From Bacteroidales bacterium UBA3388 (GTDB taxonomy: Bacteria; Bacteroidota; Bacteroidia; Bacteroidales; P3): a stretch of DNA of 64,000 bases. Shown piece after piece: positions 6,818 through 63,940 of this stretch; position 1 is the stretch's first letter, and every line of letters starts with the position of its first letter. Location of the stretch: contig DEPQ01000067.1 in assembly GCA_002358855.1 (NCBI GenBank), forward strand, positions 1,106 through 65,105, read 5' to 3'. The notes beneath the pieces were generated by a model. That model was not told where the DNA came from. It worked only from the letters and a program-made list of their open reading frames with translations, and searched no databases. A program made the position numbers and the translations under genes.

Positions 6818-6831
6818 AAATGAAGTGTTTT

Positions 6832-9281: not shown

Positions 9282-9641
9282 ATGAAGAAATACATACTTT
9301 TAATATCGGGATTGTTGAGTTTGTTTTTGGGAATATTGGGAATATTTTTACCAGTCTTGCCAACAACTCCTTTTTTGCTTTTGAGTGCGGCGTGTTTTCT
9401 TAAAAGTTCAAAATCTTTGTATGATTGGCTCTTGAATCACAAACGATTAGGAAATTATATTAAAGATTTTATGATTTACAAAGCAATAAGCAAAAAATTA
9501 AAAGTAGTAAGCATAACGACTCTTTGGCTAACTATTTTTCTGTCTGTTTGGGTTGTGAAAATAATTTGGCTGAAATTTTTTTTAATTCTAATAGCTATAG
9601 GGGTAAGTGTGCATATATTATGTTTGAAAACAAAGAAATAA
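9282..9641 (+). CDS. ybaN: DUF454 / YbaN-family small inner-membrane protein
   Basis: 119 aa with hydrophobic helices. N-terminal GILGIFLPVLPTTPFLLLSAACF is typical of the YbaN family. Confidence 0.7.
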   Translation: MKKYILLISGLLSLFLGILGIFLPVLPTTPFLLLSAACFLKSSKSLYDWLLNHKRLGNYIKDFMIYKAISKKLKVVSITTLWLTIFLSVWVVKIIWLKFFLILIAIGVSVHILCLKTKK

Positions 9642-9714
9642 TAAAATAAAACAAAGATTTAGAAAAATATTTTAGTGTAATATTTGTTTTATTCAAAGAA
9701 TAATATCTAACTTT
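9631..9714 (+). repeat. 21-bp phased CAAAG(A/G)A array (4 units, third degenerate)
   Basis: CAAAG at 9631, 9652 and 9694, with a degenerate TAGTG at 9673. The first unit overlaps the last codons of ybaN. Confidence 0.7.
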
Positions 9715-9715
9715 G
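9708..9715 (+). promoter_or_regulatory. -7 box (TAACTTTG) for gdhA
   Basis: TAnnTTTG followed by CA. 55 nt upstream of the ATG at 9771. Confidence 0.5.
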
Positions 9716-11167: not shown

Positions 11168-12266
11168 ATTTCTTTATTCCAAATATACACCATCTCACAA
11201 AAGGAATACGGCGTAAAACTTCGTAAATCAAAGGAGATAAAACAAAAACTGCAAGAGTTAATATCGCATAAATAGCAAATACAGGTAGCGAAGTATGAAC
11301 TTTTAACATATATCCAAAGGATGCGATTACTACATAGTGAACAACGTATAATCCAAAGATTGATTTAGTCATATAAGTTGCAAAAGCGTTAGTTTTATTG
11401 CAGAAACGCTGAAAAATTCCCAAAAGTCCCAACATCATAAACCAAGCATAAATAATATTAAGAGGGCTTTGAAGATATCGAGGAGAAGTGTTGTCTTGTC
11501 CAAAAGTTGTTATTGTAAGAATAGTTCCACAAATAATAGCAATAGAAATAAGAATAGGAGAGTACTTTCCTAAAATCTCTTGCACCTTATTGTGAGAGAA
11601 AATAAAATAACCCATCAAGAAAGGAATTAAATAGTTCAATGGCTTATATAAATTCAAAAGTCCGTCAAAAGATTCTGCTCTTGGATATAAAATAAGCGTA
11701 AACGAACCTACGTAAAGCAAAACTCCCAAAAGTATTATCGGAATAATTTGAATTTTTTCGCACGCTTTCCACAATATATCTTTTTTATCAATCTTGCGAA
11801 TTAAAACAATAACAATAGAAAACAACCATAAATCTTGAATAAACCAAAGGGGGCCGATTCCACTCACACTCCAAATGAAATATTTTATAAACACAGGCAT
11901 TTCTTCTGGTAACATAGGATTTCCCATCGTTAAAGAAGCACCTTGCGTATTGAAAAATCCTGTAATCCAATGAAGAATAAACAATCCTAATGTTGCAGGA
12001 ACTAACAATTTTCTTGTTCTTGACTTCATGAATTGTTTAGAAGAAAGTTTCTCTAAACTATATCTCGCACTTATTCCTGCGATTAAAAACATCAACATCA
12101 TAAACCACGGATACAAAACATACATTACAATGTCTTGATATTGATTTCCGCCAAAACCTCCAATGCCTCCGAAAACTCCTTTATTATTATAGAAGTATAT
12201 AACGTGATAAAACAAAACCGAAAGCACTATAACCCAACGTAAATTGTCTAACCAATACTTTCTCAT
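11166..12266 (-). CDS. Acyltransferase family 3 (OafA/YrhL-like) polytopic membrane protein
   Basis: N-terminal LDNLRWVIVLSVLFYHV motif (conserved R..H of the AT3 family). About 10 predicted TM helices. Confidence 0.8.
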   Translation of the reverse strand: MRKYWLDNLRWVIVLSVLFYHVIYFYNNKGVFGGIGGFGGNQYQDIVMYVLYPWFMMLMFLIAGISARYSLEKLSSKQFMKSRTRKLLVPATLGLFILHWITGFFNTQGASLTMGNPMLPEEMPVFIKYFIWSVSGIGPLWFIQDLWLFSIVIVLIRKIDKKDILWKACEKIQIIPIILLGVLLYVGSFTLILYPRAESFDGLLNLYKPLNYLIPFLMGYFIFSHNKVQEILGKYSPILISIAIICGTILTITTFGQDNTSPRYLQSPLNIIYAWFMMLGLLGIFQRFCNKTNAFATYMTKSIFGLYVVHYVVIASFGYMLKVHTSLPVFAIYAILTLAVFVLSPLIYEVLRRIPFVRWCIFGIKK

Positions 12267-12472
12267 TTTGTGATTCCTCCCATTATATCATCAATTGCAC
12301 TTTGGAATATCTCGGTTTTTATCAACGCCATTCCGTTTTTATCACCTACAAGCAAGAGTGCATCACCCGATTTAATGTCATACACTTTTCTTGCTTCCTT
12401 TGGGATTACGATTTGTCCCTTATCTCCGACCTTTACAACGCCAAAGATATATTTACCGTCTTTTTCTTGCAT
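12263..12472 (-). CDS. AbrB/MazE/SpoVT-family DNA-binding protein (69 aa)
   Basis: Swapped-hairpin motif VKVGDKGQIVIPKEARKVYDIKSGDALLL. Its stop overlaps the acyltransferase start (ATGA at 12263-12266). Confidence 0.8.
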   Translation of the reverse strand: MQEKDGKYIFGVVKVGDKGQIVIPKEARKVYDIKSGDALLLVGDKNGMALIKTEIFQSAIDDIMGGITK

Positions 12473-12498
12473 AAGTATGAAAAGTTAGAAATTTCCCA

Positions 12499-12506: not shown

Positions 12507-12525
12507 TAATAAATTTTTTGATTGA

Positions 12526-12624
12526 CAAAGAAAAATAATTCAAAGAAATAATTTTTTAATTCAAAGGAATAATTTTCTGAAACAAAGAAATATTTTTTGT
12601 TTTCAAAGAAAAAAAGAGATGTAA
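12526..12624 (+). repeat. 21-bp phased CAAAGAAA array (5 units) between divergent promoters
   Basis: CAAAG at 12526, 12541, 12562, 12583 and 12604. The last four are exactly 21 bp apart. Confidence 0.9.
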
Positions 12625-12650: not shown

Positions 12651-12658
12651 TATATTTG
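12651..12658 (+). promoter_or_regulatory. -7 box (TATATTTG) for the BadF-type ATPase gene
   Basis: TAnnTTTG followed by CA. 18 nt upstream of the ATG at 12677. Confidence 0.5.
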
Positions 12659-12676: not shown

Positions 12677-13516
12677 ATGATTTTAATAGCAGATGGAGGC
12701 TCTACTAAGACAGATTGGGCTTTGGTAGATGGCAAAAATATAAAGACAACTTTTTCTACAAGAGGAATGAATCCTTATAATGTTTCTGTTCAAACAATGA
12801 AACAAGAAATAGAAAAAAAGATTTTACCAAATGTTTGTGTAAAAGAAGTTGATGAAATCTTTATATACGCATCGGGTTGTTCTGCAAAAGTTAAGCAAGG
12901 TGAAGTTATAGAGTGGTTTAGACCTTACTTTCAAAGTGCAAAGATATGTGTTGAAGGAGATTTACTTGGAGCGGCAAGAGCAACATGTGGACACGAGCCT
13001 GCAATTGCTGCAATTCTTGGAACAGGTTCTAATTCTTGTCTTTACGATGGAGAGAATATTGTGGAAAATGTAGCATCGCTTGGATACGTTCTTTGTGATG
13101 AGGGAGCAGGAACAAATATTGGACGATTGGTCCTTAGAGATTATTTAAGAGGACGTATGCCTGAGGATTTAATGCAAAAGTTTGCAGAACAATATCCGGG
13201 AGAAGAATCAGATTTTCTAAATAAATTATACAAAGAAGAAGCTCCAAATTATTACGTTGCTTCATTTGCACGCTTTGCAATAGAAAATAAATCAATGCCT
13301 TACTGCAAGGGTGTGATAATGCAAGCGTTTGATTCATTTTTTAAAGAACAAATAACTTATTATACCTCATATAATAAATACGTTATAAATGTCGTTGGAA
13401 GTATAGCTTGTTTGGCAACAGAGGAACTAAAAGAAGTTGCAAAAAAATATAATATGGAGATTAACAATGTTGTGAAAGCACCGCTTAAAGCACTTGTTGA
13501 ATATCACATACAATAA
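12677..13516 (+). CDS. BadF/BadG/BcrA/BcrD-type ATPase (N-acetylglucosamine kinase-like)
   Basis: ASKHA-fold phosphate motifs ILIADGGSTKTDWAL and AILGTGSNSC. Confidence 0.75.
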   Translation: MILIADGGSTKTDWALVDGKNIKTTFSTRGMNPYNVSVQTMKQEIEKKILPNVCVKEVDEIFIYASGCSAKVKQGEVIEWFRPYFQSAKICVEGDLLGAARATCGHEPAIAAILGTGSNSCLYDGENIVENVASLGYVLCDEGAGTNIGRLVLRDYLRGRMPEDLMQKFAEQYPGEESDFLNKLYKEEAPNYYVASFARFAIENKSMPYCKGVIMQAFDSFFKEQITYYTSYNKYVINVVGSIACLATEELKEVAKKYNMEINNVVKAPLKALVEYHIQ

Positions 13517-34498: not shown

Positions 34499-34561
34499 CA
34501 AAGAAATAATTTATTAAAACAAAGAAATAAAAAAATAAAACAAAGACTTATTTCTATAAAA
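34499..34561 (+). repeat. 21-bp phased CAAAGAAA array (3 units) between convergent gene ends
   Basis: CAAAG at 34499, 34520 and 34541. Units: CAAAGAAATAATTTATTAAAA / CAAAGAAATAAAAAAATAAAA / CAAAGACTTATTTCTATAAAA. Confidence 0.9.
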
Positions 34562-35780
34562 CTAAGAGTAACGATACTGATACTACAAAAGTCAGTATCG
34601 TTATTATTATTCCCGATTTGAAAAACTCCCAAAAACCAATTTTTACGCCGAAATTATCAGCCGATTCAATGACAATGATATTTGCCATTGCACCTATGAT
34701 TGTTGCATTACCAGCTAAGGTTGATGCAGCAGCCAATGCGAGCCATAAAGTCTCACTATCCACAACGTTCATCAAAGGTAACATCAGCACAGTATAGGGA
34801 ACATTACTTAAAACTTGACTTAAAACCAAGCTAATTGAGTGAATGGAAATCAAACCTGCGAAATTTTCTTCTAAACCAATATTTAAAATTCCATCTAATA
34901 AGCCTACCTTTTGTACAGCACCGACAACGATAAACAAAGAGGCGAAAAACAAAAGCAAAACCCAATCTACATCTTTTATAAGCTTTTCTGGTTTATGTTT
35001 TCCAAAGAGAATGATAAGGCTTGCACCCGCAAGAGCAATTACAGCAATAGATAAACCGAGCAATTTGCCAAAAAAGAAAGCTAAAACCACCAAAACAAAA
35101 ACAATTATTGAAGAATACATATCTCTAACATTGTATTTGTCCGAGGCAACATAACTTAATTTTGATTTATCCCTAAATTCCTTTCTGTAAATAAGTCTTA
35201 CAACAAAAATACAAAGCACTAAACCAACCAAAGATATAGGAAAAAGTTTCAAAAGGAAATCTACATAACTTATTCCACTGTTTAGTCCAATCAACATATT
35301 TTGTGGATTACCCGTAATTGTCATTACACTACCAATATTAGAAGAAAGGATTTCTGCAATCAAGTAAGGCAAAGGATTTATCTTCACTCTTTGACATATA
35401 CTAATAATAATAGGGGTGAAAATCAAAACAACAGCATCGTTTACAAGGAAAGCCGAAGCAATTCCTGTGATAAAAACTACTCCAATCAAGAGTTTTAGTC
35501 GTGAATTAGCGAATTGCAGAGTTTTTTCGGTAATCAAACCAAAAAAACCATCAAATTTCAAAGCTGCAACCACAATCATCATACCCAAAAGCAAGAAAAT
35601 AGTATTGAAATCAATAAAACTCACCGCTTCCTCAAAACTTACAACAGAAAAAGCAAGCATTGCCACAGCTCCAATAAAGGCTGCCGAAGGTCTATCAATA
35701 TTTACCTTTGGCAGACGAGTAAAAATAATACCTATATAAGTAATTACAAAAATAATAAGTGCGATTGTCTCAATATTCAT
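34554..35780 (-). CDS. ArsB/NhaD (SLC13/CitMHS-like) family anion permease
   Basis: ITGNPQNMLIG motif and polytopic membrane topology. Start moved to the ATG at 35780 (MNIETIALII), 16 nt downstream of a TAATTTTG box. The longer track ORF would overlap dnaX. Confidence 0.8.
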   Translation of the reverse strand: MNIETIALIIFVITYIGIIFTRLPKVNIDRPSAAFIGAVAMLAFSVVSFEEAVSFIDFNTIFLLLGMMIVVAALKFDGFFGLITEKTLQFANSRLKLLIGVVFITGIASAFLVNDAVVLIFTPIIISICQRVKINPLPYLIAEILSSNIGSVMTITGNPQNMLIGLNSGISYVDFLLKLFPISLVGLVLCIFVVRLIYRKEFRDKSKLSYVASDKYNVRDMYSSIIVFVLVVLAFFFGKLLGLSIAVIALAGASLIILFGKHKPEKLIKDVDWVLLLFFASLFIVVGAVQKVGLLDGILNIGLEENFAGLISIHSISLVLSQVLSNVPYTVLMLPLMNVVDSETLWLALAAASTLAGNATIIGAMANIIVIESADNFGVKIGFWEFFKSGIIITILTFVVSVSLLLVL

Positions 35781-38832: not shown

Positions 38833-38916
38833 CAAAGAAAAATTGAGAAAAAACAAAGAAAAAATTAAAAAAATCAAAGAAAAAAAATAAAAAATCAAAG
38901 GATAATTCGGTTGAAA
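38833..38916 (+). repeat. 21-bp phased CAAAGAAA array (4 units) abutting the fcl remnant
   Basis: CAAAG at 38833, 38854, 38875 and 38896, all exactly 21 bp apart. Confidence 0.9.
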
Positions 38917-39284
38917 TAGAGCTTTGGGGTAGTGGAAAGCCGTTAAGAGAATTTCTTTGGAGTGAAGATATGGCTGATGCTTGTGTTTTCTTGATGGAAA
39001 AGGTGGATTTTAAAGATACTTATTCAAAAACAGATAAAGAAATAAAGAATTGCCATATTAATATAGGAACTCAAACTGAAATTAGTATAAAAGATTTGTT
39101 TGCAATGGTTTGTGAAACTGTTGGATATTCGTTAGAGATTGTTTATAACAGTGAAAAACCCGATGGAACAATGAGAAAACTTACCGATTGCACGAAATTG
39201 CATTCTCTTGGCTGGAAACACAAAATAGAGTTGTCGCAAGGTGTGCAACAACTCTATGAATGGTATTTAGAAAGTCTTAAATAG
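38907..39284 (+). pseudogene. fcl: 3' remnant of GDP-L-fucose synthase (fcl/wcaG); about the last 120 codons only
   Basis: VEIELWGSGKPLREFLWSEDMADACVFLMEK...NIGTQTEISIKDL...YNSEKPDGTMRKLTDCTKLHSLGWKHKIEL is colinear with the C-terminal third of Fcl. The Rossmann N-terminal two thirds are absent. The frame is closed by TAA at 38889. Confidence 0.8.
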
Positions 39285-43089: not shown

Positions 43090-43164
43090 AAATAAATCAA
43101 AGAAAAATTTAATTTTTTCTTTGATTTATTTTTTTATTTCTTTGATTTATTTTTCCTATCTTTG
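43090..43164. repeat. 42-nt perfect palindromic element (18-bp arms, 6-nt loop) plus inverted 21-bp units; copy 1
   Basis: AAATAAATCAAAGAAAAA-TTTAAT-TTTTTCTTTGATTTATTT at 43090-43131. CTTTG at 43119, 43140 and 43160. Confidence 0.9.
43157..43164 (+). promoter_or_regulatory. -7 box (TATCTTTG) for argS
   Basis: TAnnTTTG followed by CAAA. 32 nt upstream of the ATG at 43197. In phase with the preceding repeat units. Confidence 0.5.
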
Positions 43165-51757: not shown

Positions 51758-52960
51758 ATGAAAAAATTTGATCCAGCAACAGCAATCAGCGCTGTTCAAA
51801 GCATTTCAACAGAAAGAGGAGTGAATCCTAATATAAACGATTCAGCAACCTTTACATTCCCTTACGGACAAACAATGACAGATACTTTCCACGGAGAAAC
51901 AGAAGGATATTACCTATATTCACGTCATTGGAATCCATCAAACTTCGCATTATGTCAAGCATTGGCAGCAATGGAAGGTACAGAAGCAGCTTGGGTTACA
52001 GGCTCTGGAATGGCTGCAATCACATGTTCTTTAATGCACTTCTTGAAAGCAGGAGATCACTGCGTAGCTTCTCAAACAGTTTATGGAGGAACATTTGCAT
52101 TTTTAAAGAATTATATCGTAAAATACGGAGTTGAAGTAACTTTTGTAGACACAACAAACCTTGAAGAAGTAAAAGCAGCAATGCGTCCTAATACAAAAGT
52201 TGTTTATACAGAGTTAATGTCAAATCCTTTGTTAAGAATAGCAAACATAGCTGGCTTAAAAGAAATAGCATCTAACGGAGGAGCAAAATTATTAGTAGAT
52301 AATACATTTACACCAATGATATTCTCTCCATATAAATTAGGAGCAGACGTTGTAATCTACTCAATGACAAAATTTGTTAATGGAAAGAATGACTGTGTAG
52401 CAGGAGCAATCTGTGCAGACGCTGCAACAATCAACGCAATGATAGATGTAAATGACGGAACAGCAATGTTATTAGGACCAGTGTTAGATTCTTTCCGTTC
52501 AACTTCTATTTTGAAAAATCTTTACACATTACACATTCGTATGCAACAACACTCTAAGAATGCAGCATACCTTTCTAAGAGATTTAACGAAATAGGAATA
52601 AAAGCAAACTATCCAGGAAATGAAGATCATATAGATCACGCTTTAATGACTGCTCAAATGAACGAAGGATATGGCTACGGTGGAATGATAGCTATTGACC
52701 TTGGAACAGCAGAACGTGCAAATCAATTCATGGAAGCAATGCAAAACAAAGGAGTTGGTTACTTAGCAGTATCATTAGGCTACTTCCGTACATTATTCTC
52801 TTGCTCAGGAAAATCAACATCATCAGAAGTACCAGAAGAAGTACAAAAGAAAATGGGTATGAGCGAAGGTTTAGTTCGTTACTCAGTAGGTTTGGATAAC
52901 GATATGGAACATACATTCCAACTAATTCAAGAAGCATTAAAAGAAATTAACTTTATCTAA
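51758..52960 (+). CDS. Cys/Met-metabolism PLP-dependent enzyme (methionine gamma-lyase / sulfhydrylase-like)
   Basis: YSRHWNPS and the PLP-lysine segment SMTKFVNGKND. Fold-type I length of 400 aa. Confidence 0.8.
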   Translation: MKKFDPATAISAVQSISTERGVNPNINDSATFTFPYGQTMTDTFHGETEGYYLYSRHWNPSNFALCQALAAMEGTEAAWVTGSGMAAITCSLMHFLKAGDHCVASQTVYGGTFAFLKNYIVKYGVEVTFVDTTNLEEVKAAMRPNTKVVYTELMSNPLLRIANIAGLKEIASNGGAKLLVDNTFTPMIFSPYKLGADVVIYSMTKFVNGKNDCVAGAICADAATINAMIDVNDGTAMLLGPVLDSFRSTSILKNLYTLHIRMQQHSKNAAYLSKRFNEIGIKANYPGNEDHIDHALMTAQMNEGYGYGGMIAIDLGTAERANQFMEAMQNKGVGYLAVSLGYFRTLFSCSGKSTSSEVPEEVQKKMGMSEGLVRYSVGLDNDMEHTFQLIQEALKEINFI

Positions 52961-52981: not shown

Positions 52982-53037
52982 AAATAAATCAAAGAAAAAT
53001 TTAATTTTTTCTTTGATTTATTTTTTTTATTTCTTTC
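52982..53037. repeat. 42-nt perfect palindromic element plus inverted unit; copy 2 (identical 42 nt)
   Basis: Positions 52982-53023 are identical to 43090-43131. Similarity continues for about 20 nt with one indel. Lies between convergent gene ends. Confidence 0.9.
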
Positions 53038-53047
53038 ATTTTTTTCC

Positions 53048-55120
53048 TTATATCTTTCCCCAATATTTTCTTAAAAACCATTCTGTTGAGAAACAAAGGA
53101 TAATTATAAACCAATACCAAAATGTGTTGATTAACTTGTGGTTTGATTCTATTTTATGAATGATTGGTTTGGCGTCTTCTTGGTTATCTAATATTTTTTC
53201 TAAGTCTTGCATTTGTGAAGGGTAGAGTAGTTTTCCGTTTGTTTTGACTGAAAGGGTGTAAAGTAAATCGTGTTTCGCTACAAGGTCGATTGATTCTAAT
53301 TCGTTTGCGGAAATTATAAAGCTTCCTTCGGTTTTGTAGTCTAATCCTCCAAAATTTGTAGTTGCAGTAAAGTTATATTTTCCTGGATCAAGTTCTGAAA
53401 TTTCTAAGGCGTAGGCGTTAGACGTTTTTGTGAAGATATAGTCGTATTTATCACCGTTTTCATTCTTTAAGTTTATCTTTACTTCTGGTGTGTTAATCAA
53501 TTGATATGATTGGTTGTAGAGTTCTGCTTCTAATCTTATTTTTTGATTTTGATTATAGATGTTTTCGTGTTTTATTTTAAAGGTACTTTTGTCCTTATCG
53601 CTAACAAGATATTGAATTGTCTTGCTAATGATTTCATCAACCTGCTCTGTTGTGTTTTTATGTAAATAATTTCTTAAACGCCATTTCCAAATATCTTCTC
53701 CACAGATTGTTGCTGATTTGTTTTCTGCATTATTGTTAAAACAAATCAAAGGATAATCTGTTTTAAGAGTGTTTTGTGTTTGGTAAAACAATGTTTGAAC
53801 GCCTTGTGATAGGTCAAATTTAGCCAAAGGTGAAGAAAGGGGTGGAAGTTGCGAGAGAATATCTATTGATTCTTGGCTAAGAGAAAATAAAGAAAAGTCT
53901 TTGTTGAATTGAGGTAAAGCAGGAGTTTGAGATGTTTTGTTATAAGCATTTATTTTTACTCCATTATTAAGTTTATTCAGTAGGTTAAAGTCTGTTCTCT
54001 TTCCAATAATGTAGAGGATAGGTGTAGAGTTTTCTTGAAATCTTCTAATGATTTCATAACTCTCTTTATCGTATGGTAATTGGTGAGCAATCAAAAGATT
54101 AACCTCATTTTGTTGTGGTAATTCTTTAAAGTTAGAAATGTTAATGAGGTTATAGTTTTTATTTTTGTTTATACTCTGTCTTAAAGATGAGATATCAGGG
54201 TGAGGGCCTGCAGAAATAAAAACTATATTCTTACGAGAGTCTAATATTTTTACAAAAAATTCTCTTTTATTGTTTTCAATATTTATTTCATCTTTTAGTT
54301 TCGTTACGTTGATTGTAAAAGATTGTACACCAGTTTCAAGAGATGTGAATGTTGTAGCAAAATCTAAGAAAAAATCTTCTTGGTTTATGGTGATTTCTTT
54401 GCTGAAAATGTTTTTCCCTTTATGAATTAAATCAATTCTTACTTTCTCATTTTTTGCTTTTTTTGCTTTTATGCTGATTTCTAATGGGCAAATATCTTCG
54501 GTATATGATATATCGTTGTAACGAATTGAAGAAATGCTTACGTCTTTTTGTGTGTTTGTGTCTCCGAGTGCTATTGTGTAGATAGGACAAGGGTTTCTGT
54601 CAAGCATATTCAAAGGATTTTTTCCATAGTTGTTTATTCCGTCAGAAGCAATTATTATTGCAGAAAGATTTTGATTAAAATACTCGTCTTGAATTGTGTT
54701 TAATAAATCTGAAAAATCAGTTTGGTAATCCTTGAAATCAAAGGAAGAATTTTCTTTTGTTTCGCTTCCGAATGAGTAAAGTTTTACTTCAAAGTTTTTA
54801 TTTAAAGACTTTGATAATGAATTTAATGATTTGAGATATTCATTTGAATAAAATAGTGAATCTTTTGTCTTGATTATTGAAGCGGAATTATCTTGTGCAA
54901 TTACAATTATTGGTTTTTCTATTTTGTTTTTAGAGGTTTTAACAATAGGATTAAGCAGTAAAAAAAGTAATAAAGAGATTGCTAATCCTCTTAATGAAAA
55001 AAGAATAATGGATTGTTGTTTTGAGAAAGATTCTTGCTTGTATAGATATACAAACCATGATATTGCAAATGCAAAAACAAGAATTGGAATTAACCACCAA
55101 AGAGAATAATCTGTGAACAT
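53048..55120 (-). CDS. Membrane-anchored vWA-like protein with BatA-type N-terminal double-TM domain
   Basis: N-terminus MFTDYSLWWLIPILVFAFAISWFVY...LLLFLLLNPI. MIDAS-like IAQDNSASI. C-terminal TM FWYWFIIILCF. Confidence 0.6.
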   Translation of the reverse strand: MFTDYSLWWLIPILVFAFAISWFVYLYKQESFSKQQSIILFSLRGLAISLLLFLLLNPIVKTSKNKIEKPIIVIAQDNSASIIKTKDSLFYSNEYLKSLNSLSKSLNKNFEVKLYSFGSETKENSSFDFKDYQTDFSDLLNTIQDEYFNQNLSAIIIASDGINNYGKNPLNMLDRNPCPIYTIALGDTNTQKDVSISSIRYNDISYTEDICPLEISIKAKKAKNEKVRIDLIHKGKNIFSKEITINQEDFFLDFATTFTSLETGVQSFTINVTKLKDEINIENNKREFFVKILDSRKNIVFISAGPHPDISSLRQSINKNKNYNLINISNFKELPQQNEVNLLIAHQLPYDKESYEIIRRFQENSTPILYIIGKRTDFNLLNKLNNGVKINAYNKTSQTPALPQFNKDFSLFSLSQESIDILSQLPPLSSPLAKFDLSQGVQTLFYQTQNTLKTDYPLICFNNNAENKSATICGEDIWKWRLRNYLHKNTTEQVDEIISKTIQYLVSDKDKSTFKIKHENIYNQNQKIRLEAELYNQSYQLINTPEVKINLKNENGDKYDYIFTKTSNAYALEISELDPGKYNFTATTNFGGLDYKTEGSFIISANELESIDLVAKHDLLYTLSVKTNGKLLYPSQMQDLEKILDNQEDAKPIIHKIESNHKLINTFWYWFIIILCFSTEWFLRKYWGKI

Positions 55121-58677: not shown

Positions 58678-58727
58678 AAAATGTTGATTTTTTTCTTTGA
58701 AATATTTGTTAGAATTAAAATATTTTC

Positions 58728-58886: not shown

Positions 58887-59474
58887 ATGAAAAGAATAGA
58901 TGAAAGAAGCGACTATGAGTTAGTCCAAGCCTATATCAACGGTGAGCAAGATGTGTTCAACATTCTTGTGAGTAGACATCAGCAAAAGCTTTATAATTAT
59001 ATACATTCTGTTGTTAAAGATAAAGATGCGTCAGACGATATCTTCCAAGATACTTTTATAAAAGTTGTTAATGTGCTTAGGAGTGGCACTTACAGAGAAG
59101 AAGGTAAGTTTGTGCAATGGATTATGCGAATAGCTCACAACCTTATTATCGATTATTTTAGAAAAGAGCAGAAAATAAAATGTATCCGTTCAAATGATGA
59201 AGTTAATGTATTTGATGTGATTGGTAATTTTGAGGATTCTATTGAGACTGTAATAATAAAAAAACAGATTAGTAGAGATGTTAGACGCCTTATAAAGCTT
59301 TTGCCAGAGGAACAACGCAGAGTGTTAATTATGAGACACTATGCAGATATGTCTTTTAAGGAAATAGCAGAGAAAACAGGCGTTAGCATAAATACAGCAC
59401 TCGGAAGAATGAGATACGCTTTGCTTAATATGAGAAAAATGGCAGAAGAAAAATCTATGCTTTTGACTGTTTAA
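58887..59474 (+). CDS. ECF-type sigma-70 family RNA polymerase sigma factor
   Basis: Region 2 (DIFQDTFIKV, WIMRIAHNLIIDYFR) and region 4 HTH (MSFKEIAEKTGVSINTALGRMRYA). Confidence 0.9.
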   Translation: MKRIDERSDYELVQAYINGEQDVFNILVSRHQQKLYNYIHSVVKDKDASDDIFQDTFIKVVNVLRSGTYREEGKFVQWIMRIAHNLIIDYFRKEQKIKCIRSNDEVNVFDVIGNFEDSIETVIIKKQISRDVRRLIKLLPEEQRRVLIMRHYADMSFKEIAEKTGVSINTALGRMRYALLNMRKMAEEKSMLLTV

Positions 59475-60817: not shown

Positions 60818-60825
60818 TACATTTG
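60818..60825 (+). promoter_or_regulatory. -7 box (TACATTTG) for the small lipoprotein gene
   Basis: TAnnTTTG followed by CA. 48 nt upstream of the ATG at 60874. Confidence 0.5.
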
Positions 60826-60873
60826 CACAAACTAAGGAATTGTAAGAAATCATTAACCAAAAAAATAAAAAAG

Positions 60874-61287
60874 ATGAAATTAAGAAGATTATTTTTAAGC
60901 GTAGCTGTTGTAGCATTGATGGCAGCTTGCGGTGGAAAAGCAACAGAAACTGCAACAGAAACAGTAGCAGAAGAAACAGTAGCAACAGAAGCAGTAGTTG
61001 AAGAAACAACAGAAGCTCCAGCAGAAGAAGCTGCACCAGTTGTTGAACAAAAGAAAGCAGATCCATGTGAAGCAAAAGTAAAAGCATTCGAAAAATGGGT
61101 TGACGAATTCAAAGCTGCTCAAAAGAACAAAGCTAATGGAGCAAAAGAATTAAAAGCTTTCTCTGAAATGTTGAAACAAGCTGCTGACCAAGAAGCTACA
61201 GTAAAAGAATGTGTTGAAAACGCAGATTACAAAACTCGCGTTCAAAATGCAATCATGCAATGCAAACAAATCAGATCTCAAAAATAA
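60874..61287 (+). CDS. Small lipoprotein with T/E/A-rich linker, function unknown
   Basis: Lipobox LMAAC after MKLRRLFLSVAVVA. ATG at 60874 lies 49 nt downstream of a TACATTTG box. Followed by a strong terminator hairpin. Confidence 0.6.
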   Translation: MKLRRLFLSVAVVALMAACGGKATETATETVAEETVATEAVVEETTEAPAEEAAPVVEQKKADPCEAKVKAFEKWVDEFKAAQKNKANGAKELKAFSEMLKQAADQEATVKECVENADYKTRVQNAIMQCKQIRSQK

Positions 61288-62010: not shown

Positions 62011-62505
62011 TTATTTTGAATTTAAAATACGTTTTTCAATCAAAGTAGTGGAGTAACCTTCAATAAATTCAATTGTTTGAACGCTTCCACCTCTTGAAAC
62101 AACAATATCATATCCCACAATGTTTTCAATCTTGTAATCAGCACCCTTCACAAGAATATCAGGCTCTATTTCCTTAATCAATTCATAAGGAGTATCCTCA
62201 TCAAACAAAACAACTGCATCAACACTCTGCAAAGCAGCTAAAATATGTAAACGAGAATTTTTATCTTGCAAAGGACGATGTTCACCTTTCAAGCGTTTAA
62301 CAGAAGAATCCGTATTTACGCCAATAATCAAACGCTCACCTAAATCCTTAGCCTTTGCAAGATAATCCACATGCCCTAAATGCAATAAATCAAAACAACC
62401 ATTAGTAAAAACAATTCTTTCGTTTGCGTTTCTCCATTTAAGAATCAATTCCTTTAAATCCTTTCTGCAAACGATTTTTCTTTCAATTTGTTCTATTTGT
62501 GTCAT
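62011..62505 (-). CDS. Cytidylyltransferase-fold nucleotidyltransferase (RfaE domain II-like, heptose-1-phosphate adenylyltransferase-type)
   Basis: FTNGCFDLLHLGHVDYL (HxGH). 164 aa. Confidence 0.8.
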   Translation of the reverse strand: MTQIEQIERKIVCRKDLKELILKWRNANERIVFTNGCFDLLHLGHVDYLAKAKDLGERLIIGVNTDSSVKRLKGEHRPLQDKNSRLHILAALQSVDAVVLFDEDTPYELIKEIEPDILVKGADYKIENIVGYDIVVSRGGSVQTIEFIEGYSTTLIEKRILNSK

Positions 62506-63488
62506 ATTTGTTTTTTCTTTTTAAAGGAAAAATATATAAAAGCAATCAATCCAACGACTATTGTGCCAATTTGTGAACTTATCCAACTCAACCAACCGCA
62601 TACGTATGCAATTGGTCGTGAAATTGTGTAGGTTTCTAATACTTCTGCAAAGATTGCAGGTTGCAAGCCTATGCCTCCCGGAGTTATCATAGGGCCAAAG
62701 GCTCCTAAAACAGTAGTTACTAAGGCTTGAATAGGGGTTAGAATCTCAGTTTGACTCAAACACTTAAAGCAAACAAAGGTTCCAAAAATCCATAACGCCC
62801 AAATCAATAGAGAATAGAAAATGAAAAGCAAAGGATTTTTTAATTTGAATATGCTTTTTATTCCTTCTAAAAATCCTTTTACTAATTCTTTGGTCTTATT
62901 TAAGGTTTTATTGTTTTTAATCTTGCGTTTGAATGCAAAAAACAATGCAACTACAACAATAATTACCACCATTCCTATTATAAATAGTTGTAAAAGATTA
63001 TTGAAATCAAGGTTAAGGTTTTTTTCTATGTAATCTAATAATAAATCTTTTTGAATTACGATAGTGGTTAATAGGAGTAGGGCAAAAATAACCATATCTA
63101 TAATTCTTTCTGTAATGATTGTGCCGAGAGATTTTTCAATTGGAATATTATCACTTTGTTTTAGCATTGTACAACGCACAACTTCGCCAAGTCTTGGCAC
63201 AGCTAAATTAGTCAAATAGCCACTCATTACTGCTAAAAAGCTGTTTGTGCGAGATACTTTACAACCAAACGTCTCGCTCATCAATCTCCAACGTAATGCT
63301 CTTACATAATGCGAGAGCAAACTAACTATTATAGCAAATCCAAACCAAAGATAATTGGTCTTAGATAATGAATCCCAAATTTGTGTCCTTTCTTCTGCTC
63401 CGAGTTTTGTCCAAAACCACCAAATAAAAGCAAATCCTAATGCAGTAAAGAAAAGGGTTTGGAGAATGTTTTTTAGTTTTGACTTCAA
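62502..63488 (-). CDS. UPF0104 / lysylphosphatidylglycerol-synthase-TM-region-like (flippase-like) membrane protein
   Basis: About 8 TM helices. Conserved RWRLM and PRLGEVVRC segments. Confidence 0.75.
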   Translation of the reverse strand: MKSKLKNILQTLFFTALGFAFIWWFWTKLGAEERTQIWDSLSKTNYLWFGFAIIVSLLSHYVRALRWRLMSETFGCKVSRTNSFLAVMSGYLTNLAVPRLGEVVRCTMLKQSDNIPIEKSLGTIITERIIDMVIFALLLLTTIVIQKDLLLDYIEKNLNLDFNNLLQLFIIGMVVIIVVVALFFAFKRKIKNNKTLNKTKELVKGFLEGIKSIFKLKNPLLFIFYSLLIWALWIFGTFVCFKCLSQTEILTPIQALVTTVLGAFGPMITPGGIGLQPAIFAEVLETYTISRPIAYVCGWLSWISSQIGTIVVGLIAFIYFSFKKKKQI

Positions 63489-63869: not shown

Positions 63870-63914
63870 TGAATTTATATTGAAAATTTATTCTTAGACT
63901 TATTATTTTTTTTT

Positions 63915-63940
63915 CTTTATTTTAGAAAAATATTTCTTTG
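63915..63940 (-). repeat. 21-bp phased units (2, one degenerate), minus orientation
   Basis: CTTTA at 63915 and CTTTG at 63936. The reverse complement of 63920-63940 is CAAAGAAATATTTTTCTAAAA, which matches the first 15 nt of the unit at 12583. Confidence 0.6.

Follow-up and report, generated by a model that had tools for sequence, protein, structure and literature searches.

Array loci in the window

The window analysed here, a 64-kb stretch of contig DEPQ01000067.1 of Bacteroidales bacterium UBA3388, contains six arrays of an imperfect direct repeat whose units begin with the pentamer CAAAG, together with two identical copies of a head-to-head hairpin (Table 1). Intergenic DNA makes up 2.8 kb of the window (4.4% of its length), and the arrays and hairpin copies occupy 17% of it. 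All of these arrays are intergenic or reach at most 11 nt into the end of a gene, and the box octamer that opens each unit, CAAAGAAA (or TTTCTTTG on the other strand), has 20 of its 41 window copies in intergenic DNA, an enrichment there of approximately 20-fold.

Table 1. Repeat arrays in the window, with the unit pair, hairpin and -7 boxes associated with them
Feature	Coordinates	Strand	Units or sequence	Setting
Array A1	9631..9714	+	units 9631, 9652, (9673 degenerate), 9694	overlaps last 11 nt of DUF454 gene; gdhA downstream
-7 box beside A1	9708-9715		TAACTTTG	
Array A2 (locus of the preliminary description)	12526..12624	+	truncated unit 12526; full units 12541, 12562, 12583, 12604	divergent MazE/AbrB-like-acyltransferase operon (-) and BadF-like gene at 12677 (+)
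-7 box beside A2	12651-12658		TATATTTG	
Array A3	34499..34561	+	three units: 34499, 34520, 34541	convergent pyrG (+) and CitMHS transporter gene (-)
Strong hairpin downstream of A3	34567-34605		-18.5 kcal/mol, z -6.2	
Array A4	38833..38916	+	four units: 38833, 38854, 38875, 38896	starts 11 nt past stop codon of Na+/H+ exchanger
Array A5	43091..43164	-	units 43144 and 43123, plus inverted unit (CAAAG on + at 43098)	
-7 box of argS	43157-43164		TATCTTTG; includes an extra CTTTG at 43160, 20 bp on from the A5 units	
Second head-to-head unit pair	52983..53022	n/a	CAAAG 52990, CTTTG 53011; hairpin, A/T-run flanks	gap of convergent genes 51758-52960 (+) and 53048-55120 (-)
Array A6	63899..63940	-	good unit 63940 to 63920; degenerate TAAAG unit 63919 to 63899	upstream of panD
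-7 box beside A6	63869-63862	-	TAACTTTG	

A preliminary description of this DNA had placed CAAAG starts at A1 to A4 and CTTTG at 43119, 43140 and 63936, and the letters read as it gave them; the further box it placed at 63915 did not hold, since 63915-63919 reads CTTTA (TAAAG on the minus strand) and belongs to a degenerate unit. Its two comparisons between loci were borne out, the unit at 34520 differing by one base from the reverse complement of 43124-43144 and the unit at 12583 sharing its first 15 nt with that of 63920-63940. The members it had not included are the in-phase inverted unit at 43098, the pair copy at 52983-53022, and lone boxes at 47, 38952, 50911 and 58692.

Several other features of the window lie near boxes or carry repeats of their own. 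An ECF-type sigma factor gene (58887-59474) is preceded by a 209-bp gap with one box (TTTCTTTG at 58692) and no array. Divergent from the largest array is a minus-strand gene (12264-12473) for a 69-residue MazE/AbrB-like DNA-binding protein of the SpoVT/AbrB fold, which overlaps the start of the acyltransferase gene. Some oligomers of this fold bind direct-repeat arrays (MraZ), and we take the position of this gene beside the largest array to be probably a coincidence. A predicted lipoprotein gene (60823-61287) contains an in-frame 15/30-bp tandem repeat (60935-61008) rich in Glu, Thr, Ala and Val, and its product varies from 136 to 138 residues across strains.

Phasing of the repeat

Self-distances between CAAAG copies across the whole window peaked at 21 bp (13 pairs), 42 bp (9) and 63 bp (5) over a background of 0-3. 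The pattern CAAAGRWW-N13-CAAAGRWW had 9 matches where dinucleotide shuffles predict 0.04, and intergenic DNA held 10 same-orientation and 12 any-orientation CAAAG pairs at 21 bp, compared with means of 0.00 and 0.01 (maximum 1) in 1000 dinucleotide-preserving shuffles of the intergenic sequence. Tandem Repeats Finder (TRF) made independent period-21 calls at 9627, 12536, 34490, 38814 and 43107. The self-distance peaks and both shuffle tests rule out an artefact of chance or composition, and the counts and shuffles agree with the central claim of the preliminary description, that of a dispersed intergenic family phased at exactly 21 bp in both orientations and in every type of gap: with 10-12 pairs against approximately 0.01, the phasing lies far above a shuffled-intergenic null.

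Unit anatomy and spacing

Profiling 172 units gave CAAAGAAA-n-A-w-T-T-T-n-n-T-R-A-A-w, that is, an 8-bp box and a 13-bp spacer, repeated in arrays of 3-6 units. Positions outside the search pattern are still informative (A10 80%, T17 58%, R18 89%, A19 75%), and because the sequence leading up to the first box already closes with ...TRAAA, we draw the conserved core across the unit junction as TRAAnCAAAGAAA (about 13 bp), followed by about 8 variable A/T-rich bases. The 21-nt profiles before the first and after the last unit of 45 arrays revealed no conserved array ends; they show A-richness and one half of the core, ...TRAAA, and nothing else.

Between adjacent boxes of the same orientation, the distance was 21 bp in 171 cases, 20 bp in 2 and 22 bp in 2, counts that are somewhat inflated because array detection demanded exact 21-bp chains, with flanks of ±70 bp scanned as well. 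The spacing is exact even though the spacers abound in A/T runs prone to indels. Around one-third of the arrays include one inverted unit, the pentamer of which mostly keeps the 21-bp phase, and inverted neighbours at 21 bp comprised 11 head-to-head and 15 tail-to-tail cases.

Gene context, promoters and curvature

Gene context was evaluated for 67 intergenic arrays, with both neighbouring genes called for 50 of them. Array orientation relative to these neighbours was random (<A< 16, >A> 13, <A> 11, >A< 10), so that arrays turn up in convergent gaps, which lack a promoter, as well as in divergent gaps, which lack a gene end, and this lack of relation to the flanking genes points to a target in double-stranded DNA and away from an element acting as RNA. 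Arrays frequently start a few bases past a stop codon, equally in the A-rich and T-rich sense (14 versus 15), and the room left for a promoter between array and next gene is roughly 30-60 bp. The neighbours share no functional theme (gdhA, a BadF-like ATPase, pyrG/CitMHS, a Na+/H+ exchanger, argS, panD).

The -7 boxes of the form TAnnTTTG(C) ahead of window genes (12651, 9708, 43157 and, on the minus strand, 63869) mark the window as Bacteroidota DNA. Genuine TAnnTTTG boxes lie 14-127 bp downstream of arrays without a 10.5-bp register, the distance from last box to -7 box giving Rayleigh n*R^2 values of 1.7 and 0.6; with neither this register nor a theme among the neighbours, gene-specific regulation is unlikely. 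Known motifs were considered and rejected as explanations of the unit. The two-TTTG Bacteroidota promoter needs TTTG-N19-21-TAnnTTTG (-33/-7), whereas the arrays give TTTG-N13-TTTCTTTG with no TA; a role of the box as the -33 element of the next promoter has few fits (a spacer of 19 in L051/L096), the spacers otherwise being 9-16 or far longer; and the IHF and ARG-box consensus sequences, compared by eye, do not fit.

The preliminary description had also predicted that the A-tracts of the units would make the arrays intrinsically curved, and this prediction failed for most of them in a wedge-model test. In that test A2 and A4 showed modest curvature, near the 5th percentile of the window, whereas the remaining four arrays were indistinguishable from shuffles and no array fell among the 25 most curved segments, while phased A-tract DNA, as a control, bent strongly; the wedge parameters are those attributed to Bolshoy et al. 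1991, and the curvature result is indicative only. These observations bear on the proposal that the arrays are curved DNA or UP-element-like activators, in which phased A-tracts would bend DNA or bind the C-terminal domain of the RNA polymerase alpha subunit and so boost promoters. The unit does resemble the E. coli UP element, reportedly an A-tract, T-tract, A-tract consensus according to Estrem et al., TAnnTTTG -7 boxes follow shortly after many arrays, and the modest model curvature of A2 and A4 points the same way. We nevertheless judge such activators highly unlikely, given that 10 of the 50 arrays sit in convergent gaps that have no promoter, that the last box stands at such variable distances from the -7 box with no helical register, that most window arrays curve no more than shuffles do, and that curvature has no need of a conserved C...G box.

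Folding, hairpins and terminators

Direct arrays fold like shuffles, with z-scores of -0.65 to +0.08 for 12541-12624 on both strands and 38833-38916 on one strand. The segments 43091-43130 (within A5) and 52983-53022, in contrast, are the same perfect palindrome with a 17-bp stem and a 6-nt loop (MFE -15 to -16 kcal/mol, z -5.2 to -6.6), and their A/T-run flanks and gene-end position make them resemble bidirectional terminators. The combination of a stable hairpin, a T run and a gene end was found for inverted unit pairs only, not for direct arrays. An MFE scan within 70 nt of the arrays placed a strong hairpin 3' of the A-rich strand for 14 arrays and 5' of it for 3, with none nearby for 43 of 63. 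Arrays beside terminators are oriented to give an A tract before the hairpin or a T tract after it.

Such associations raise the possibility that the family consists of transcription-punctuation modules, whose units build or extend bidirectional intrinsic terminators by placing an A tract 5' and a U tract 3' of a hairpin, with direct arrays reinforcing or backing up termination between operons. The two head-to-head pairs at gene ends, the 14-to-3 bias in hairpin side, the frequent adjacency to stop codons, and the terminator hairpins into which both arrays of a putative viral contig lead (see below) would all fit this idea. It leaves unaccounted for, however, the majority of arrays that have no hairpin nearby, the direct arrays that remain unstructured (z about 0), the 11 arrays in divergent gaps where there is no gene end, and a stop-codon adjacency that is equal in the A-rich and T-rich sense; neither the conserved C and G nor the exact 21-bp period is accounted for by A and U tracts. 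We therefore regard termination as an unlikely account of the family.

An element acting at the RNA level, whether as a small RNA or as an array bound by an RNA-binding protein, is still harder to credit and in our judgement very improbable indeed. Unstructured A- or U-rich repeats could bind single-strand RNA-binding proteins, and a small promoter-plus-terminator unit adjoins the array of locus L110, but the orientation of arrays relative to flanking transcription is random, no structure was found in them, neither known RNA families (Rfam) nor tRNAs matched anywhere in the window, and many arrays lie between a terminator and the -7 box of the next gene, where they are perhaps never transcribed.

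Distribution among genomes

Relatives of the window are readily found: metagenome contigs at 96-100% nucleotide identity to it are common, and its TrkA/TrkH proteins show 80-94% identity and synteny with a Candidatus Onthomorpha MAG (L110). We take the host of the window to be an uncultured, low-GC, Ca. Onthomorpha-like member of the gut Bacteroidales. A three-unit pattern scan with one genome per species returned at least 117 loci, and 81 among the matches listed were Bacteroidota by record title. Imperfect AT-rich arrays of the window type were found repeatedly in several Ca. Onthomorpha MAGs and in other low-GC (28-40%) Bacteroidales MAGs, whose sources include animal guts and digesters, at least 10 array loci coming from a single MAG, such that the family is not confined to the window. 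Since the proteins of some array-bearing MAGs are just 40-65% identical to those of the window (approximately), the family spans more than one genus, and the retention of the box over that distance implies a conserved trans-acting reader.

The array family is nonetheless limited to one lineage. No arrays were present in an unbiased sample of 603 kb of diverse Bacteroidales sequence around 80 gdhA loci, where small peaks at 21 and 63 bp are conserved gdhA codons. A phylum-wide family was rejected, as in Flavobacteriales, Saprospiraceae, Chitinophagaceae, Cytophagales and Prevotellamassilia the matches are either 7-residue repeats within coding sequence or perfect 21-bp tandems of higher GC that contain CAAAGAAA by happenstance. 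Near-perfect 21-bp tandems starting with CAAAGAAA(C) occur at L086 5743-5910, L101 7019-7102, L118 7357-7566 and L106 6243-6326, in Saprospiraceae, Chitinophagaceae and Flavobacteriaceae MAGs; the remainders of their units are GC-richer and often palindromic (e.g., AGAAACA-N4-TGTTTCT), and they may be distant relatives of the family or unrelated repeats that happen to match the pattern.

A phage origin was likewise rejected, as the 98 viral matches are almost all coding or perfect repeats and window-type arrays were found on one 27.5-kb contig only. This contig, IMGVR_UViG_3300011988_000242, which is viral by its membership of the collection (putatively so), has two three-unit arrays (L146 9572-9660 and L158 10907-11000), each leading directly into an A-tract/hairpin/T-tract terminator.

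Evolution, turnover and breakpoints

Within the species the arrays are stable. On contigs 96-100% identical to the window the regions of A1, A2 and A6 are nearly invariant, A1 being nearly unchanged in strains that have diverged by about 2%, A2 varying by an 8-bp indel at its truncated unit 12526 only, and A6 showing an A9/A8 run-length polymorphism; no variation in unit number was seen among these strains.

Comparisons beyond the species revealed both conservation inside arrays and turnover of the arrays themselves. In the two pairs of orthologous arrays with both flanks homologous (L087/L124 and L051/L096, 85-90% identical), differences numbered 0 of 48 positions in boxes, 13 of 52 in spacers and 197 of 1594 in flanks, so that, on these two pairs only, boxes differ from spacers (Fisher p = 1e-4) and spacers evolve faster than flanks (p = 0.02). 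The pooled box-versus-spacer test across all seven similar pairs was not significant, the likely reason being that five pairs are homologous on one side or paralogous and that alignment past the breakpoint adds differences. Taken with the spacing counts, the comparison shows that both the 8-bp box and the 21-bp spacing are under selection, whereas the spacer sequence is not.

At the same time, arrays are gained or lost between species. The gap between trkH and murF-alr, 14 bp long in the window (6818-6831), holds a five-unit array and about 220 bp more at locus L110, the whole 300-bp block being missing from the window, and L041 has arrays at sites where the window gaps are 27 and 54 bp. The filled site of L110 against the empty site of the window, the sole comparison of this kind, shows no clear target duplication and may reflect either an insertion or a deletion. 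Beside the five-unit array of L110, a TAATTTTG -7 box is followed by a hairpin-terminated segment of about 70 nt that resembles a small RNA gene (L110 7560-7650).

Homology between loci also breaks at some arrays. It stops within the array in L020/L119 and L048/L093, while L058 and L089, in different gene contexts, have only a terminator-plus-array module of about 160 bp in common, and arrays of unrelated loci are alike over 97-147 nt at 88-90% identity. In the window, 38908-39284 encodes residues 229-347 or so (the C-terminal third) of GDP-L-fucose synthase (fcl; E = 1e-42 to PDB 7anh) in a frame that runs on from the last A4 unit, the 5' two-thirds of the gene being missing, which leaves a gene remnant at the array edge; an exact-product look-up of the ORF at 38970 gave no match. 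Metagenome and MAG contigs often end at arrays or within about 100 bp of them, five at A2 (L003, L005, L007, L009 and L010, window ~12509-12537) and others near further arrays (L016, L027, L042, L055, L058, L119 and L123). In this lineage short-read assembly is evidently interrupted by the repeats, and because so many MAG contigs end at arrays, some array breakpoints may be assembly artefacts or chimeras. Strain variation elsewhere in the region includes an EcoRV-like endonuclease and D12-class methyltransferase pair between the LPG_synthase_TM and CTP_transf_like genes of two same-species strains (L310 4337-6179, L311 4337-6180), which is missing in the window (junction ~62505-62513) and in eight other strains.

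Much of this turnover would be expected of a selfish or neutral dispersed minisatellite, expanding by slippage, spread and homogenised by recombination, read by no protein, and having rearrangements and deletions as its main effect. Array positions that are not conserved across species and genera, homology ending inside arrays, the module common to L058 and L089, the similarity of arrays at unrelated loci, the cut of fcl exactly at the edge of A4, and the MAG contigs that stop at arrays all speak for it. Against it stand the invariance of the box while spacers outpace flanks in orthologous arrays, the exact spacing despite A/T runs, a constant unit number among strains 96-100% identical, and the fact that no conserved termini or TIRs were seen, nor a clear target duplication at the one site compared, while certain of the breakpoints in its favour could be MAG assembly chimeras. 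On this balance we consider a selfish or neutral origin improbable, at about the same level as the terminator modules.

Comparison with known repeat systems

No published description emerged when the full-text literature was searched for the motif, the host genus and Bacteroidetes repeats of 21 bp, in keeping with the preliminary view that this is not a described element; the repeat family is real and apparently undescribed. The closest described element within the order Bacteroidales is BrickBuilt, a minisatellite/MITE of Porphyromonas gingivalis, which consists of 23-nt imperfect tandem direct repeats at 19 intergenic copies in 2.3 Mb, combines a leader and a tail with IS5-like terminal inverted repeats, holds up to 22.8 repeats, and is found in one species or genus (PMC4596501). 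BrickBuilt (PMC4596501) and the arrays described here share their occurrence in Bacteroidales, imperfect repeats close to two helical turns long in which some positions are conserved and others vary, consistently intergenic placement at many loci, and neighbours without a theme. Unlike BrickBuilt, the present arrays have no leader, tail or TIR, hold 3-6 units of exactly 21 bp, and are spread over several genera, with a density in the window of about one per 10 kb.

The TAACTGA heptamers of Beggiatoaceae, Cyanobacteria and some Bacteroidetes are contiguous 7-nt units located mostly just before start codons and oriented with the gene, a position that suggests an RNA-level role (PMC4679880). They resemble the present family as abundant intergenic direct repeats with no neighbour theme and no known binder (PMC4679880). 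Their differences are as clear, since our arrays have a 21-bp period, random orientation and a position outside the leader.

Among better-known systems, the REP/BIME elements of enterobacteria and pseudomonads, to which the preliminary description had likened the arrays, have units that are each an imperfect palindrome or hairpin, are linked to RAYT transposases, and are recombinogenic binding sites for host proteins (IHF, gyrase). The likeness holds loosely, in that both are abundant extragenic repeats found in every gap type, in both orientations and often at operon ends; it ends at structure, for single units and direct arrays here do not fold (inverted pairs alone do) and have no conserved ends. 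STAR elements of Staphylococcus aureus and MIRU of mycobacteria have a period of about 40-77 bp and a variable copy number. Like the present arrays they combine a short conserved box with less-conserved intervals at many intergenic loci and have no known function, but box, GC content and period differ, and unit number does not vary among strains here. Iterons of plasmids and phages (P1, F, R6K, pPS10) are contiguous direct repeats with a 19-22-bp period on which initiator monomers bind one helical face, and they occupy one or a few loci beside a rep gene and an AT-rich unwinding region. Our arrays share with them the exact direct repetition (21 bp), a conserved core of 8-13 bp and a variable remainder; unlike iterons, they occupy seven loci per 64 kb beside housekeeping genes, with no rep gene among the neighbours.

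A CRISPR array combines repeats of 23-47 bp with unique spacers of about the same length and lies close to cas genes. This identity was rejected for arrays of 3-6 units with 8-bp boxes, 13-bp AT-rich low-complexity spacers and no cas gene among the Pfam-annotated flanking genes. Within dispersed intergenic repeat families, the novelty of the present one is the exact two-turn phasing of a short conserved box.

A protein docking interpretation

The reading we prefer, and hold tentatively, is that the arrays are same-face clusters of binding sites for a putative, lineage-specific, sequence-specific DNA-binding protein. An invariant short box, free spacers, a two-turn period that resists indels and independence of orientation are together what recognition of double-stranded DNA by a protein on one face would leave in a sequence. 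The recognised element would be the CAAAG pentamer inside a core of approximately T-R-A-A-n-C-A-A-A-G-A-A-A, and sites exactly two helical turns apart would bring the bound copies onto one DNA face and into mutual contact, forming short nucleoprotein blocks of 3-6 units in the gaps between operons. Such blocks may serve as chromosomal punctuation, either as an insulator or roadblock between transcription units or in the organisation of the nucleoid. Inverted neighbours would keep the pentamer phase and double as AT-rich bidirectional terminator hairpins. The binding itself is something we infer, and the same-face cooperative binding put forward in the preliminary description is consistent with the rigid spacing (171 of 175 at 21 bp) and with box differences of 0/48 against 13/52 in spacers.

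Some points count against the docking reading. Gain and loss of arrays between species is unusual for essential regulatory sites, the presence of arrays at synteny breaks and beside a truncated gene is as expected of recombinogenic or selfish repeats, and concerted evolution could mimic the conservation of the box.

Going further, it is possible, although doubtful, that a candidate oligomerising protein with a two-turn period marks at least 100 inter-operon gaps per genome and would thereby constitute a new form of bacterial chromatin punctuation or insulator, the sites of which would also seed terminators and rearrangements.

The family has practical consequences as well. Because arrays break short-read assemblies and sit at synteny breakpoints, they probably split up the MAGs of a lineage that is abundant in animal guts and may lead to mis-joins; they also mark places where genes have been lost, the truncated fcl being an example. 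Even if the family were merely a selfish minisatellite, it would still document the build-up of intergenic DNA in a streamlined AT-rich genome. To our knowledge, Bacteroidales have no characterised counterpart of the proteobacterial sequence-reading nucleoid proteins or REP-type elements, and this family, with its invariant box, two-turn phasing and hundreds of natural variants across genera, offers a handle on that gap in our view of how Bacteroidales chromosomes are organised.
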